Shown here: positions 55,948 through 59,752 of the stretch, one piece after another
How the letters are laid out: each line of letters begins with the position of its first letter
Numbering within the stretch: the first letter of the stretch is position 1
Assembly (NCBI GenBank): GCA_049287045.1
Contig: JBAQFC010000008.1
Coordinates: forward strand, 22,198 to 86,197
Source: Minisyncoccia bacterium
GTDB taxonomy: Bacteria; Patescibacteriota; Minisyncoccia; Phycocordibacterales; UBA9973
Reading direction: 5' to 3'
Length of the DNA: 64,000 nt
The notes under the pieces: generated by a model
The model's database searches: none
The model's input: the letters and a program-made list of their open reading frames with translations, nothing else
What the model was told of the DNA's origin: nothing
Position numbers and translations under genes: made by a program

Positions 55948-56409
55948 ATGAATATAAAGCTCGAGATCGCTTTTTTTATTTTAACTGGAATTTCCGTCAT
56001 TGTTGGCGTTATTTGGGTTATAAAAACAGAGAAAAGATTGAAAAGATTTTTTGTTGGTAAAAAAGCAAAAGATTTAGAGGATACTATCATCGCGCTAGAA
56101 AGTGACCTTGCTAACTTAATAAAAATAAAAGAGGAACACGAAAAAGAAATTATTGAGATAAATGCAAAATTAAGAAAAAGTATTCGTGGACTCGAGACTG
56201 TTCGTTTCAATCCTTTTCCAGATCAAGGTAGCAACCAAAGTTTCGCAATAGGATTATTAAATGAAGATGGAGATGGTGTCGTCCTTTCTAGTTTGTATTC
56301 CCGTGAGAGAATGAGTGTTTTTGCTAAGCCTATTAAAAAAGGAAAATCAGAATACGAATTAACAAACGAAGAAAAAGAAATACTAAAAAAAGCTGAAGTA
56401 AAACAATAA
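55948..56409 (+). CDS. hypothetical membrane-anchored coiled-coil protein
   Basis: N-terminal TM, a coiled coil, and a conserved-looking C-terminal domain (RFNPFPDQGSNQSFAIGLL...). Its stop overlaps the infB start. Confidence 0.4.
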   Translation: MNIKLEIAFFILTGISVIVGVIWVIKTEKRLKRFFVGKKAKDLEDTIIALESDLANLIKIKEEHEKEIIEINAKLRKSIRGLETVRFNPFPDQGSNQSFAIGLLNEDGDGVVLSSLYSRERMSVFAKPIKKGKSEYELTNEEKEILKKAEVKQ

Positions 56410-57905
56410 TGAAAAATAAAACAGAAAACATAATAGAACGTCCACCGATAGTAGTAGTCATGGGTCATATCGACCATGGTAAATCTACGTTGCTGGACTA
56501 TATCAGAAAGACAAATATTGTCGACCGTGAAGCTGGAGGAATTACTCAGCATATTTCTGCATATGAAGTTATTCACAAAGACGAACATGGCAAAGATAAA
56601 AAAATTACTTTCTTAGATACTCCAGGACACGAAGCTTTTTCAAAAATGCGTGAACGTGGAGCAGAGGCAGCTGATATAGCTATTCTAGTTGTTTCAGCAG
56701 AAGACGGAGTAAAGCCACAAACCATAGAAGCTTATAAAACAATCCTTGAAAGTAAGATTCCTTTTATTGTAGCTATTAATAAAATAGACCGCCCAGCTGC
56801 TAATATCGAAAAGACAAAAATGGAACTGGCTGAAAATGAAATATATGTTGAAGGATACGGAGGCAAAACACCTGTCGCTGAGATTTCTGCAAAAGTTGGT
56901 ACTGGAGTAGATAATCTTTTAACTCTAATTCTCCTTATTGCTGAGATGGAAGAATTTACAGCAAATACGGAGGAAGGAGCAACGGGATATGTTATCGAAG
57001 CAAACTTAGATCCAAAGAGAGGAATCCAAGCTACTTTAATTATTAAAAATGGAAAACTTAAAAATGGTATGACTGTGGCAGTAGAAGATGCTTTATGTTC
57101 TACCCGTATCATGGAAAACTTTTTAGGAAAAATGGTTAAGGATGCTAGTTTTTCCTCCCCTGTTCGACTAGTTGGCTTTAGTAAAGTTCCAAAAGTTGGA
57201 GCAATGTTTAAAGCTTTCGAAAAGAAAGGTGATGCTGAAGAATACGCAAAAGAAATATTAAATAAAAAAATAACCAAAAATGAAAAGAGAGAGATAAGTG
57301 ATAAAAAAATGATTCCAATAGTTTTGCGTGCAGATGTCATGGGATCTATTGAAGCAATCGAAAAAGAAATAAAAAAAATACAAAGTGAAGGTGCAGAATT
57401 CAAAATAATCCAGAAAGGTGTCGGACCTATTACTGAGTCCGATATTAAATCATCCCAGGGTTCAGAAATCATTGTAATCGGGTTTAATGTAAAAGCAGAC
57501 AGAGGTGCCAATGACTTAGCTATAAAGCAAAACATTCCAATTCTATTTTTCGATATCATTTACAAAATGACAGAATGGTTGACAGAAGAAATGGAAAAGA
57601 GACGCCCTAGAGTAGAAACAATCGAAGTTACCGGACGAGCTAAGATAATCAAAGCTTTCAGCCGTACCAAGGAACGCCAAGTTGTCGGAGGAAAAGTTAC
57701 TGAAGGAAATATCTCTCTTGGTGAAACAGTTAAAATAATTCGTCGTGAGTTTGAAATAGGTAAAGGTAGAATCGTAAACCTAGAAAAATTCAAATCAAAA
57801 ACAAACAAAGTAGAAGAAGGTTCAGAATTTGGTACTATGATCGAATCAAAGATTGAGATAGTAGCAGGAGACATTCTTGAGTCGTTTTCAATAACACAAA
57901 AATAA
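56409..57905 (+). CDS. infB: translation initiation factor IF-2 (short form without the long N-terminal region)
   Basis: G domain ([24 protein letters not shown]) plus the C-terminal beta-barrel domains; 498 aa. Confidence 0.9.
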
Positions 57906-57906
57906 T

Positions 57907-58230
57907 ATGATCCCACGAAACGAAAAAATAGCACAATTTGTAAAAGAGCTTGCTGCTCAGTTTTTGGCACGCGAGAACAATAATACCTCACTCATAACTG
58001 TTACTTCATGCAACACCTCCCCTGACATGAAACGTGCAACTATATTTATCACTGTGCTCCCTGAATCAAAAGAGAAGCTGGCATTGGAATTCGCAAAACG
58101 CAGAAGAGCAGACCTACGAGACTTCTTGAAAAAGAATATGGAAGTAAAAACAATCCCATTTATTGATATTGAGATAGATAAAGGAGAAAAAAATAGACAA
58201 AGAATTGACGAACTGCTTCGAGAAAAGTAA
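57907..58230 (+). CDS. rbfA: ribosome-binding factor A
   Basis: 107-aa KH-like protein directly downstream of infB (conserved infB-rbfA order). Confidence 0.65.
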   Translation: MIPRNEKIAQFVKELAAQFLARENNNTSLITVTSCNTSPDMKRATIFITVLPESKEKLALEFAKRRRADLRDFLKKNMEVKTIPFIDIEIDKGEKNRQRIDELLREK

Positions 58231-58258
58231 GATAGATAGGCGTTGGTTGTGCGCCTAC

Positions 58259-58330
58259 GGCCTGGTAGCCAAGTGGTAAGGCATTCCTCTGCAAAAGGAA
58301 TATACGGCGGTTCGATTCCGCCCCAGGCCT
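58259..58330 (+). tRNA. tRNA-Cys (anticodon GCA)
   Basis: Acceptor GGCCTGG/CCAGGCC, anticodon stem TTCCT/AGGAA with loop CTGCAAA, T arm GGCGG-TTCGATT-CCGCC. Confidence 0.8.
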
Positions 58331-58360
58331 CAAGTGTAATTTGAAAAAAGAATCATATTT

Positions 58361-58430
58361 GCCCGGATGGATAAAAATCAAACTGCTTTGATTTTTATCC
58401 GAACAAAGTGAGGAGGCCGTCATCCGGGCA
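58361..58430 (+). ncRNA. tRNA-like structured element sharing the tRNA-Leu acceptor stem (pseudo-tRNA or small RNA)
   Basis: 5' gcccggatgg and 3' catccgggca duplicate the acceptor/D start of tRNA-Leu(TAA) located 48 nt downstream. The interior is replaced by a perfect 14-bp hairpin, ggataaaaatcaaa-ctgc-tttgatttttatcc, plus aaagtgaggaggccgt. Confidence 0.35.
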
Positions 58431-58477
58431 ATGGTTTTGTTTACAAAATTTAAAATATGAAATATATTTTAAAAATT

Positions 58478-58559
58478 GCCCGGATGGCGGAATTGGTATA
58501 CGCGCACGACTTAAAATCGTGTCTCGCAAGGGATGTGGGTTCGACCCCCACTCCGGGCA
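58478..58559 (+). tRNA. tRNA-Leu (anticodon TAA)
   Basis: Acceptor GCCCGGA/TCCGGGC, anticodon stem CACGA/TCGTG with loop CTTAAAA, long variable arm, T arm GTGGG-TTCGACC-CCCAC. Confidence 0.8.
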
Positions 58560-58624
58560 CAAGACATATTGAAAATAAAATAAATATGTTAAAGTAGAAA
58601 GTAAGTTTTTATATTTGTTTTTAT

Positions 58625-58697
58625 GCACCCATAACTCAGCTGGTAGAGTAGCTCCCTCTTAAGGAGAATGTCGGAGGTTCGATCCCTCCTGGGTGCA
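58625..58697 (+). tRNA. tRNA-Lys (anticodon CTT)
   Basis: Acceptor GCACCCA/TGGGTGC, anticodon loop CTCTTAA, T arm GGAGG-TTCGATC-CCTCC. Confidence 0.7.
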
Positions 58698-58719
58698 CAC
58701 ACGAGAGAAAGAAAATGTT

Positions 58720-58795
58720 TTTAAAATGCCTTGCGCAGGCTGACGAGCCGAGCAGAGCAAAAATTCAGCAGAATTTTATGTGTGCATTTTAAAAA
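58720..58795. repeat. 75-nt structured repeat, copy B (intergenic, between tRNA-Lys and tRNA-Leu)
   Basis: Identical 37-nt and 12-nt blocks to copy A. The internal hairpin aaaattc-agca-gaatttt differs from copy A (atttgcc-agca-ggcaaat) by compensatory changes that keep a 7-bp stem and the AGCA loop. Perfect terminal inverted ends ttttaaaatgc/gcattttaaaa. Confidence 0.6.
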
Positions 58796-58862
58796 TTTTT
58801 TCTTACTCTCGTGTTTGATTTATTATCAAAAGAAAGCTATTCTATATAGTAATCGAAAAAAT

Positions 58863-58944
58863 GCCGGGATGGCGGAATTGGTATACGCGCTAGTCTTAGG
58901 AACTAGTGGGGCAACCCTTGGGAGTTCGAGTCTCCCTCCCGGCA
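58863..58944 (+). tRNA. tRNA-Leu (anticodon TAG)
   Basis: Acceptor GCCGGGA/TCCCGGC, anticodon stem CTAGT/ACTAG with loop CTTAGGA (G37), long variable arm, T arm. Confidence 0.75.
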
Positions 58945-58987
58945 CAATGTTTATAAGCTTTAATAGGCTTGACTTTTAAATTTATAT

Positions 58988-59752
58988 ATGGTATACTTTA
59001 TGTATATGAATAAAACAACTAACAACTTAATAATAAAGACTTTAGGAGTATTAGGTATATTTGTTTTCAGTATCCTAGTTTTGCCTGTAAAAGCTAATGC
59101 TTATGGTGGCTTTTCTTATGACGGCGGAGCTGGTAGTTACTACAATGGATATTCTTATGTAGGTGATATTAATACACCCACAACAGCAACACCCACGCCA
59201 ACAGTCAATTTAGTTCCAACCATAAATTCAATTAGTCCTGATTCTGCAGTTTCAAGTAAAGCTGCTACTGTTGTAACAATCATAGGAACCAACTTTTCAT
59301 TTGGATCAGTTGCTAAATGGAACGGTGAAGAAAGAGCAACAACTTTTGTAAACTCAAATAAAATTACAACAACCCTTACCCCATCCGACATGTCTGGATT
59401 AGGTGCTTACACAATAACAGTTTTTAATCCTCTACCAGGAGGTGGAATGTCAAATTCCGCTATATTCCAACTAAACAAAGCTTCTGTCGCAAAAGCGACA
59501 ACTACAACAACCGCAACGACTGTAACAACAGCAAAGGTGGTAAAGAAAACAACTGTTGCTAAAAATACAACTAAAACAACAGATTCTAGTAGTAGTCTTA
59601 TGGCCAACGCACTGTTTGGAACAAATGGTTTAATGCCTTCAAGTTTAATCGGATGGCTTTTGCTTTTAACTCTAGTTCTGCTAATAGTAATATTTGCTAG
59701 AAAAGCCTTTGTTAAAGAAGACAAAAAACATACTCCTTTAAAACACGCTTAA
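58988..59752 (+). CDS. secreted surface protein (IPT/TIG-like beta-sandwich, Thr-rich stalk, C-terminal TM anchor)
   Basis: Signal peptide, the segment PTINSISPDSAVSSKAATVVTIIGTNFSFGSVAKWNGEE (IPT/TIG-like), T-rich linker, C-terminal LIGWLLLLTLVLLIVIFARK. Confidence 0.45.
   Translation: MVYFMYMNKTTNNLIIKTLGVLGIFVFSILVLPVKANAYGGFSYDGGAGSYYNGYSYVGDINTPTTATPTPTVNLVPTINSISPDSAVSSKAATVVTIIGTNFSFGSVAKWNGEERATTFVNSNKITTTLTPSDMSGLGAYTITVFNPLPGGGMSNSAIFQLNKASVAKATTTTTATTVTTAKVVKKTTVAKNTTKTTDSSSSLMANALFGTNGLMPSSLIGWLLLLTLVLLIVIFARKAFVKEDKKHTPLKHA

Follow-up and report, generated by a model that had tools for sequence, protein, structure and literature searches.

To our knowledge, the supply of tRNAs in bacteria is thought to be regulated almost entirely by transcription and degradation. 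Bacterial RNase P has been reported to be inhibited by pairing of the leader (PMC9433436), and a designed leader-sequestering hairpin controls RNase P processing in Escherichia coli (PMC7897497). According to the latter study, control of the accessibility of the cleavage site has not been demonstrated otherwise, and structured leaders that control the access of RNase P have so far come from engineering only (PMC7897497). Here, we analyzed a 64,000-nt stretch of DNA from a Minisyncoccia bacterium (contig JBAQFC010000008.1, hereafter the window), and in particular an element of 70 nt located between the genes of tRNA-Cys and tRNA-Leu(UAA). The element begins with a copy of the first ten nucleotides of tRNA-Leu (E5′) and ends with an arm complementary to them (E3′). 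These two strands can form an outer stem (P1) around a hairpin (P2) and a conserved single-stranded segment (J), and E3′ can also pair with the 5′ end of the tRNA itself, in a second helix that we call Helix II. In our judgment, there is about an even chance that UUR-reading tRNA-Leu genes in Patescibacteria bear a conserved structured 5′ leader RNA, of which the element is the core and which acts in cis as a strand-exchange device gating 5′ maturation. Judging from the sequences retrieved, the hosts of this leader appear to be Nomurabacteria/Paceibacteria and related uncultured lineages.

Structure and Conservation of the Element

The first-pass annotation of the window had described a tRNA-like mimic reusing the acceptor stem of tRNA-Leu around a perfect 14-bp hairpin. 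This hairpin was found again as an inverted repeat (58369-58382 / 58387-58400, loop CTGC) inside an outer stem of 9-11 bp, whose arms in the window (TTGCCCGGATG / CATCCGGGCAA, 58359-58369 / 58421-58431) are complementary at 11/11 positions. The layout of the whole element is GCCCGGAUG-(GAUAAAAAUCAAA CUGC UUUGAUUUUUAUC)-CGAACAAAGUGAGGAGGCCGU-CAUCCGGGC-A. The 70-mer folds at -31 kcal/mol, compared with -15.4 ± 3.3 kcal/mol for its shuffled versions (z = -4.7), and none of 200 shuffles was as good.

At least 29 homologous copies (at least 23 distinct) were collected from Nomurabacteria/Paceibacteria genomes and metagenomes. Six of them are among 80 loci fetched around infB homologues; at least 23 come from a pattern scan of metagenome contigs, which returned at least 120 loci, of which at least 23 were true elements and the others chance matches in GC-rich coding DNA. 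Five genomes more distant from the window, with about 70% infB identity (L011, L021, L027, L063, L064), carry a homologous element at the same place. The structure alignment was made of 23 distinct copies, linkage to the tRNA was examined in 26 loci with downstream DNA, and the tests on leader plus tRNA were run on 21 distinct copies. A covariance model built on the 23 distinct copies found exactly one copy in the 64-kb window (102.9 bits), and its search of the 80 loci gave no additional full-length copies.

In the alignment, 96.4% of the cells of P1 (10 pairs) and P2 (13 pairs) are paired, and 11/23 pairs have changed on both sides. None of 500 shuffles reached these values, and partner columns that had been slid gave 30-47% of paired cells. 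P2 alone is paired in 98.7% of the cells (6/13 pairs changed on both sides), and P4, the hairpin directly preceding the tRNA, in 87% (8/11 pairs). The non-Watson-Crick standard pairs in P1 and P2 amount to 12 G·U cells vs. 0 A·C cells; therefore, the constraint points to an RNA transcribed in the direction of the tRNA rather than to a DNA palindrome. The P2 apex AAACUGCUUU, AUCCGA and GAGGAGGCCG are invariant or nearly so. It is mainly because the element is conserved and covarying in 22 other distinct copies that we consider it to be beyond chance. Fold, conservation and covariation thus support the earlier proposal of a real structured element that reuses tRNA-Leu acceptor sequence, within the tRNA cluster and on the tRNA strand.

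This element is no normal tRNA. There was no ARAGORN call and no Rfam tRNA match at E ≤ 10; the element itself had no match to any Rfam 15 family even at E ≤ 10, and searches at permissive E-values with the window region and two other members returned just the flanking tRNAs and chance matches. P2 starts at the position where the D-arm of a tRNA starts. Nevertheless, a cloverleaf identity was rejected, as the interior consists of one 14-bp hairpin and 21 unpaired nt, with no D, anticodon and T arms. A tRNA-type 7-bp acceptor stem with unpaired N73 and -1 was rejected as well, the stem being longer and the -1:73 pair being formed in 19/21 copies and covarying (UA 16, UG 2, AU 1). Of the acceptor-like pairing proposed for the ends, the outer stem therefore stands, but as an imperfect mimic whose "discriminator" is not always A. 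The ends had also been equated with the termini of tRNA-Leu. This holds for the first 10 nt, which are identical, whereas the 3′ end (CATCCGGGCA) matches the tRNA terminus (ACTCCGGGCA) in just its last 8 nt and is more aptly called a reverse complement of the 5′ end of the tRNA. A decayed tRNA duplicate was rejected because the element resembles tRNA-Leu in nt 1-10 and the last 8 nt only, the remainder being conserved and covarying in 23 distinct copies; the idea of a tRNA pseudogene with a hairpin insertion likewise fails on an interior that is conserved and covaries across lineages of roughly 70% identity. At the position of the element, relatives have either nothing or the same conserved, covarying structure, and in none of them was a normal tRNA found of which the locus could be a decayed copy.

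J contains GTGAGGAGG at 58408-58416. The Shine-Dalgarno-like box of this segment had been noticed at first, and its reading as a translation signal was abandoned: no conserved open reading frame follows it, a start codon (ATG) is present in about 7/23 copies only, and the frames are not conserved.

Linkage to tRNA-Leu(UUR) Genes

The element was found 31-53 nt upstream of a tRNA-Leu gene (UAA or CAA), on the same strand, in 26/26 testable loci; in the window, the gap is of 47 nt, and not of 48 nt as first given. Its first 10 nt are those of the cognate tRNA in all 26 loci, and this across six acceptor variants (GCCCGGAUGG, GCCCGAGUGG, GCCCAGGUGG, GCCGGGAUGG, GCCCGGGUGG, GCCCAGAUGG). Among distinct copies, the identity between E5′ and the tRNA is 21/21, and 0/10000 permutations did as well. 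The mimicry thus follows each genome's own tRNA-Leu, a feature that the first-pass annotation had overlooked. A direct plus an inverted copy of the first 9 nt of the tRNA was present upstream of 13/70 Leu(UAA) genes and 6/8 Leu(CAA) genes, but of 0/59 Leu(UAG) genes and of a single gene of other tRNAs (1/65 tRNA-Lys).

Copies of the UAA type are located downstream of tRNA-Cys, 15-74 nt after it. Copies of the CAA type have another context, with a divergent parB, the element and tRNA-Leu(CAA), an XRE-like gene and miaA. Because these two contexts differ, the element is associated with the tRNA and not with its neighbors. In six CAA-type loci (L101, L115, L138, L146, L153, L174), the order is (topA, relA/spoT-like), parB on the opposite strand, element-tRNA-Leu(CAA), an XRE-like protein of about 500 aa and miaA, these names having been assigned by eye from N-terminal sequences. 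The product of miaA modifies A37 of UNN-reading tRNAs, including the tRNA-Leu(CAA) of these loci.

In many copies, those of CAA-type loci among them, a -10-like box lies about 10 nt (9-11 nt) upstream of G1 of the element. Since the CAA-type element follows a divergent parB and has such a box upstream, it would be the 5′ part of the pre-tRNA. In the window, the element starts 29 nt past tRNA-Cys, and read-through transcripts would therefore include it. Co-transcription with the tRNA would thus be suggested by position, namely by the common strand, the distance of 31-53 nt and the upstream boxes.

A Second Helix That Excludes P1

The 3′ arm of the element and its flanks (CCG-N-CAYYYGGGC-x1x2x3) are complementary to positions -3 to -1 of the tRNA leader and to nt 1-13 of the tRNA, with which they form Helix II. 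In the window, CCGTCATCCGGGCAAT (58417-58432) and ATTGCCCGGATGGCGG (58475-58490) are complementary at 15/16 positions, reaching the tRNA leader (ATT) and the D-stem strand (GGCGG), and the last CCG of J (58417-58419) can pair with tRNA C11-G13. P1 and Helix II are mutually exclusive because both use the 3′ arm 58421-58429. The first-pass annotation had overlooked that this arm is antisense to the 5′ end of the genuine tRNA, including its leader and D-stem strand, so that there are two exclusive helices. Thus, we found here the arrangement by which riboswitches and attenuators are recognized, i.e., two exclusive helices that share a strand, each with comparative support.

The three positions x1-x3, outside the duplicated block, are informative for Helix II. 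They are paired with the tRNA's own leader in 57/63 cells, compared with a permuted mean of 38.2 ± 3.2 (0/10000), and with the element's own leader in 44/63 cells. Where these two leaders differ, x pairs solely with the tRNA leader 15 times and solely with the element leader twice (hand count). By position, x1:l-1 is paired in 21/21 copies (AU 17, UA 2, GC 1, GU 1), x2:l-2 in 18/21 (UA 10, AU 8) and x3:l-3 in 18/21 (UA 10, CG 5, AU 3). The wobbles of Helix II are 11 G·U vs. 0 A·C cells. Unguided RNAalifold, given the leader and 13 nt of the tRNA, predicted P2, Helix II and P4, but not P1.

E5′, the 5′ strand of P1, has an alternative partner as well, the 3′ acceptor strand of the tRNA (58552-58558). 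By folding, this strand and A73 (58559) could pair with either copy of the 5′ strand. E5′ is Watson-Crick complementary to the tRNA 3′ acceptor strand in 21/21 copies, whereas E5′:E3′ contains a wobble or a mismatch in 9/21 copies, including a clade with tandem G·A. Because the former pairing is perfect while mismatches persist in the latter, E5′ is constrained by something beyond P1.

The predicted energetics agree between copies. The minimum free energy (MFE) structure of leader plus tRNA combined Helix II with E5′ on the tRNA 3′ strand in 21/21 sequences, and the state with P1 and a normal cloverleaf was 3-16 kcal/mol less stable. When prefixes of the transcript were folded, P1 was the preferred use of the 3′ arm before the tRNA was made (intact in 14/21, partial in 7/21); once the first 13-26 nt of the tRNA were present, Helix II replaced P1 in 21/21 sequences, with a gain of about 4-18 kcal/mol. 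This change of the preferred helix with the growth of the transcript is the signature of co-transcriptional strand exchange.

Helix II encloses two hairpins, P3 and P4, and its 3′ strand includes the RNase P cleavage site (58477/58478). At the site of P3, other copies have differing yet self-complementary sequences, such as TTCCGAC..GTCGGAA or TCTCC GAA GGAGA (judged by eye). P4 was also found in one locus lacking the element (L077).

Proposed Mechanism and Its Weight

We hypothesize that E5′, P2, J, E3′, P3 and P4 would follow one another in the leader, the tRNA coming directly after, and that E3′ would be the sequestor of the tRNA 5′ end and E5′ the anti-sequestor. During transcription, P1 would form first, between E3′ and E5′. 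As the tRNA 5′ end emerges, the more stable Helix II would displace P1, an exchange predicted to be thermodynamically favored and for which the extra pairs at both ends of Helix II might serve as toeholds. Helix II would bury the RNase P site and the D-stem strand, and E5′, thereby freed, could pair with the tRNA 3′ acceptor strand. As a consequence, productive folding and RNase P processing of tRNA-Leu(UUR) would be gated or delayed. A factor (protein, small molecule or RNA) that locks one of the two states would probably act at the P2 apex and J. Co-transcription with the tRNA, the effect of sequestration on RNase P, the direction of the regulation and its trigger are the parts of this scheme that we infer.

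Several points weigh against this scheme. The aligned sequences are phylogenetically related, which inflates the significance obtained from shuffles, and nearest-neighbor energies ignore the tertiary structure and modifications of the tRNA as well as folding kinetics. Among the 21 MFE folds, no consistent pairing partner was found for J besides CCG:C11-G13, nor was a ligand or protein partner found for the P2 apex AAACUGCUUU or for CCGA..GAGGAGGCCG. A promoter-like sequence within the leader, in P3/P4 (TTTACA-17-TATATT, promoter-like match 10/12), ends in the 3′ half of P4, which doubles as a -10 box match 9 nt before G+1 of the tRNA, and much of the tRNA may arise leaderless. A strongly trapped precursor would also be costly if this is the sole tRNA-Leu(UAA) gene. 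Rather than selection, gene conversion or template switching might maintain the identity between E5′ and the tRNA; in L104 (25 nt) and in leader families of tRNA-Cys and tRNA-Lys, there are direct repeats that comprise leader bases too. Finally, the element is absent from the closest public infB relative, the metagenome-assembled genome JAVHNX010000036 (L001, 99% protein identity), in which the flanking DNA is 96.9% identical and locally identical around the tRNAs. It is also absent from a 91% relative (L052) and missing from about 90% of the related infB loci (n = 80). As it is lacking in the closest relative and in most related loci, the element must be dispensable.

Alternative Explanations

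The patchy distribution of the element, and its absence from the nearest relative, would be expected if it were an evolutionary by-product, i.e., a partial tandem duplication of the start of the tRNA-Leu gene (promoter, leader and first 10 nt) accompanied by an inverted copy and homogenized by template switching or gene conversion. The hairpins would then be neutral, or would merely neutralize the spare strand so that tRNA folding is undisturbed, and no regulation would occur. In the same direction, a 25-nt direct repeat (TATAATTTGATAATTGCCCGGATGG) precedes the element as well as the tRNA in L104, the inverted copy of L011 matches at 16/16 positions including leader bases that do not belong to the tRNA, and copies of the 5′ part are found upstream of tRNA-Cys (14/82) and tRNA-Lys (9/65), some with 5 leader bases, with no exact or 1-mismatch antisense arm. 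Nevertheless, conservation of the interior (P2 apex and J) is strong, and the covariation of P2, P4 and Helix II includes G·U but never A·C; a correction at the DNA level is disfavored because it would not yield G·U-only covariation. Mismatches between E5′ and E3′ persist, as in the tandem G·A clade, though template switching would erase them. Also, in most genomes the repeats span just 10-12 nt, a short length for conversion by recombination, and the same architecture is found in two unrelated contexts, UAA and CAA. For these reasons, we consider a by-product rather unlikely. Even as a mere by-product, the element would document the concerted evolution of 10-nt repeats around tRNA genes.

Less probable still, and improbable in our opinion, is a stand-alone small RNA or tRNA-like minihelix, in which P1-P2-J would be released by RNase P/Z, or would end at P4, and would act as a decoy for an enzyme that binds acceptor stems, or in trans on pre-tRNA-Leu by means of its masked antisense arm. 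P1 stacked on P2 does resemble a hairpin substrate of RNase P, an A follows the stem in 17/21 copies, and antisense pairing would work equally well in trans; the -10-like box 9-11 nt upstream of G1 could start such an RNA, and P4 could both end it and hold a separate promoter for the tRNA. However, the pairing of -1:73 in 19/21 copies and a "discriminator" that is G or U in 4/21 are unfavorable for leucyl-tRNA synthetase (A73 identity) and for accurate RNase P cleavage. T-loop and D-loop are lacking, no tRNA or mascRNA-type Rfam match was obtained, and no terminator-like site was found. Furthermore, acceptor positions 4-7 vary between lineages, and a protein would not need them to be copied. 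Because these positions differ, RNA-RNA pairing explains the copying better.

The presence or absence of the element between strains with 96.9% identical flanks, as an extra block of about 99-106 nt in the window vs. L001 and L052, recalls a miniature mobile element or an integration scar at the 5′ end of tRNA-Leu, the 12-nt repeat (TTGCCCGGATGG) being a target-site duplication or an att core and the 11-nt inverted arms being terminal inverted repeats. However, these arms and this repeat are tRNA sequence and change with the tRNA variant of the host, and the G·U-only wobbles indicate a constraint at the RNA level. The 64-kb window contains one copy, and among the at least 29 copies, the 80 loci and two viral scans, no site other than upstream of tRNA-Leu(UUR) was occupied. 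No transposase or integrase was found, and it is the 5′ end of the tRNA that is duplicated, not the 3′ end used by tRNA-targeting integrases. We therefore regard this explanation as very unlikely. A miniature inverted-repeat transposable element or an insertion sequence derivative was rejected in particular, as dispersed copies are lacking and each positive locus has one copy, always upstream of tRNA-Leu(UUR). The att duplicate suggested by the first-pass annotation did not hold either: the duplication concerns nt 1-10, at the 5′ end; the repeats lie only about 100 nt apart (117 nt in the window); there is no integrase, and a plausible protein-coding gene is lacking in the interval; and the wobbles (G·U) are of the RNA type. 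Two scans of viral contigs with the element pattern gave 5 and 3 matches, all by chance and in coding DNA without the hairpin, and a viral origin was rejected on this basis.

In most of the 80 loci, the spacer between tRNA-Cys and tRNA-Leu(UAA) measures 11-75 nt. We considered whether the element-less allele of L001 arose by a simple deletion between the 12-nt direct repeats, and rejected it: L001 retains 11 extra nt (TAAATTATAAT) that the window lacks, so that one event fails to explain both alleles. In L001 (5924-5963), TTGAAA-17-TATAAT ends 2 nt before G+1 of tRNA-Leu, which is odd for a tRNA promoter; the same arrangement (TTGATA-17-TATAAT-TT) is found in L064 (2368-2417), but preceding the element rather than the tRNA. 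From sequence, this would fit a loss of the element by direct-repeat slippage, yet at least one more 11-nt indel would be needed between the window and L001. As a side note on these loci, L048 (JAMPXW010000002.1, title Burkholderiales) and several loci with "Saccharibacteria" titles share the tRNA cluster and, in conflict with these titles, have an infB with 67-72% identity to the Nomurabacteria query; the contigs are probably mis-binned or mislabeled.

Lastly, a terminator or insulator that separates the tRNA-Leu unit from the infB-rbfA-tRNA-Cys unit would agree with the location of the element 15-74 nt after tRNA-Cys in UAA-type loci and with similar A/U hairpins with a AACUGCUU apex after tRNA-Lys in L031, L046 and L062, but has hardly any chance of being right, as there are 0 terminator-like sites in 57800-59100 (1.2 expected), the divergent parB of CAA-type loci leaves no upstream transcription into the element, and neither a copy of the downstream tRNA 5′ end nor pairing with its leader would be needed. 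An intrinsic terminator was rejected directly: P2 is A/U-rich and is followed by CCGAAC, with no U tract.

Organization of the Locus and Other Putative Structured RNAs

The window belongs to a patescibacterial genome (Ca. Nomurabacteria/Paceibacterota), and its local gene order is infB (56409-57905), rbfA (57907-58230), tRNA-Cys, the element, tRNA-Leu(UAA), tRNA-Lys(CUU) and tRNA-Leu(UAG). The parts of the element and its neighbors are given in Table 1.

Table 1. Parts of the leader element and adjacent tRNA genes, with positions in the window.
Feature	Position	Strand	Evidence
tRNA-Cys(GCA), upstream neighbor	58259..58331	+	ARAGORN; Rfam tRNA 68.4 bits
E5′, spare copy of tRNA-Leu nt 1-10 (GCCCGGATGG)	58361..58370	+	identical to 58478-58487
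P2, A/U-rich hairpin of 13-14 bp, invariant AAACUGCUUU apex, loop CUGC 58383-58386	58370..58399	+	perfect inverted repeat; covariation; same helix in RNAalifold
J, conserved single-stranded segment CCGA-N6-8-(U/C/G)GAGGAGGCCG-N, includes Shine-Dalgarno-like GGAGG	58400..58420	+	invariant columns
E3′ block, P1 3′ strand (58421-58429/30) and Helix II 5′ strand	58417..58432	+	15/16 complementarity; P1 and Helix II covariation
P3, small variable hairpin (GUUUUG UUUA CAAAAU) within the Helix II loop	58434..58449	+	window MFE
P4, hairpin UUAAAAUAUG AAA UAUAUUUUAA directly 5′ of the tRNA	58450..58472	+	covariation; RNAalifold
Helix II 3′ strand, tRNA-Leu leader -3..-1 (ATT) and tRNA nt 1-13	58475..58490	+	complementarity; covariation; folding; RNAalifold
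tRNA-Leu(UAA), gene bearing the element	58478..58559 (Rfam), 58478..58560 (ARAGORN)	+	Rfam 59.5 bits

Another structured region of the cluster is located in the window at 58696-58862, in the spacer between tRNA-Lys and tRNA-Leu(UAG). It is a long hairpin with 34-nt arms that are 88% complementary (MFE -54.5 kcal/mol, z = -7.4), and its interior motif, GYGCGAG..CCG..hairpin GCAC-GACG-GUGC..CGAG..GGUCG..hairpin UUUUUCAGCAGAAAAA..GACCACAA, recurs in most related loci. This hairpin has no Rfam match and looks like a second undescribed structured RNA.

Leaders that copy their own tRNA were also observed for tRNA-Cys and tRNA-Lys. The tRNA-Cys leader consists of a copy of nt 1-18, about 17 nt (CAUGAGCGUAGCGAAUAU), a copy of nt 22-34 and a closing hairpin (CCUCUGC/GCAGAGG), the real tRNA-Cys coming 30-50 nt later (L009, L010, L014, L017, L021, L024, L032, L033, L053, L068, L070, L072, L074, L077). 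An exact copy of the first 9 nt was present upstream in 14/82 tRNA-Cys genes, with no antisense arm found, and the window's own tRNA-Cys is without such a leader. In 9/65 tRNA-Lys(CUU) genes, the first 11-12 nt are repeated 37-80 nt upstream and followed by GUUUUGGUAGG(U/A)CG (L006, L014, L018, L033, L040, L048, L057, L072, L078); in several genomes, the repeat includes 5 leader bases. Self-copying leaders would thus seem a general feature of the tRNA cluster.

The spacer between tRNA-Cys and tRNA-Leu(UAA) contains another structured insert in four loci (L018 5971-6086, L036 5991-6092, L038 5954-6071, L074 6028-6142). It is made of a P2-like A/U hairpin, then of a stem (GCCGGUUC../..GAACCGGC) that encloses a small hairpin whose loop is ..GUGA (GUGAGGCGAAGCCGA). 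This last sequence resembles the J segment of the Leu element (GUGAGGAGGCCGA), but the outer stem of the insert is no tRNA copy. Also, P2-like A/U-rich hairpins with the AACUGCUU apex are found directly after tRNA-Lys in L031 (6162-6191), L046 (6881-6923) and L062 (2663-2686), where they give weak partial matches to the covariance model. The P2 module may therefore be a more general type of hairpin in these genomes.

Comparison with Known Systems

If the strand-exchange scheme is correct, it would be the first example of a tRNA whose maturation is regulated in cis, by a leader co-evolving with its tRNA through six acceptor variants. The scheme would also provide a compact and testable model of co-transcriptional strand exchange, and would point to a regulated decoding of UUR leucine codons in Patescibacteria, whose genomes are reduced and AT-rich. 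On a practical side, false "tRNA-like" calls in these genomes can stem from the element. Full-text search of the literature retrieved no account of a leader of this kind. Alternative helices are a known logic of riboswitches and attenuators; the components (the tRNA 5′ end both in copy and in antisense) and the target (tRNA maturation) are new, and there is a real chance that the element is more than a variant of this logic. In particular, we tentatively propose a natural device that controls a tRNA and not an mRNA, in which a sensor-bearing leader would set the exposure of the RNase P site by co-transcriptional strand exchange, a proposal that we hold to be doubtful. In a stronger version, the swapped-strand RNA of about 200 nt would itself be the product, with an acceptor/T-arm made of the spare strand of the leader and the tRNA 3′ end, a tmRNA-like topology and a function of its own. 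On the same proposal, the related self-copying leaders of tRNA-Cys and tRNA-Lys would extend the device to a general strategy of Patescibacteria to tune tRNA supply.

Among RNAs formed next to tRNAs, the rtT repeats of tyrT (Rfam RF00391) reportedly carry a partial copy of the adjacent tRNA, namely of its 3′ end, and lie 3′ of it. The 3′ETS-leuZ of the E. coli glyW-cysT-leuZ operon is likewise a functional piece of RNA in a tRNA operon, with the same Cys-Leu(UAA) order, but is located 3′ of the tRNA and sponges small RNAs in trans (PMC6191717). Both differ from the element in having no antisense to their own tRNA, and neither sequence nor Rfam similarity was found.

Viral tRNA-like structures, mascRNA, Y RNA/YrlA and the tRNA-like domain of tmRNA share with the element an acceptor-like helix made of RNA termini. 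The likeness to tmRNA extends to the predicted alternative state, in which an acceptor/T-arm module around a large internal domain would be built from the leader 5′ end and the tRNA 3′ end. In contrast to these RNAs, the element lacks a T-loop and a D-loop of its own, and what it reproduces is the exact sequence of a single neighboring tRNA and not the general shape of tRNAs; no Rfam match to these families was obtained.

With strand-exchange riboswitches and attenuators, such as the yxjA purine riboswitch (PMC9756952) and the T-box, the element would share the logic of an early helix displaced by a later, more complementary strand, and its conserved unpaired nucleotides could be a sensor. In about 14/23 copies, the element is followed by UGGU or CGGU, which is reminiscent of the UGGN by which the T-box reads the 3′ end of the tRNA. 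However, a T-box riboswitch was rejected: the downstream gene is a tRNA, no match to the T-box or to another Rfam family was found in three members at a permissive E-value, and there is no terminator. Unlike in all these systems, the controlled product would be a tRNA and not an mRNA, and the element has no terminator, ribosome-binding site, Stem I or specifier.

The closest counterpart is the synthetic RNase P riboswitch (Ender et al., 2021, Nucleic Acids Research, PMC7897497). There, as proposed for the element, a pre-tRNA leader hides or exposes the nucleotides just 5′ of the cleavage site and so controls RNase P processing, and in both cases two exclusive helices share a strand. The synthetic system is designed, depends on a theophylline aptamer and masks the single-stranded leader only. 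The element described here is natural, its mask would extend to nt 1-13 of the tRNA, and a spare acceptor strand would act as the competitor.

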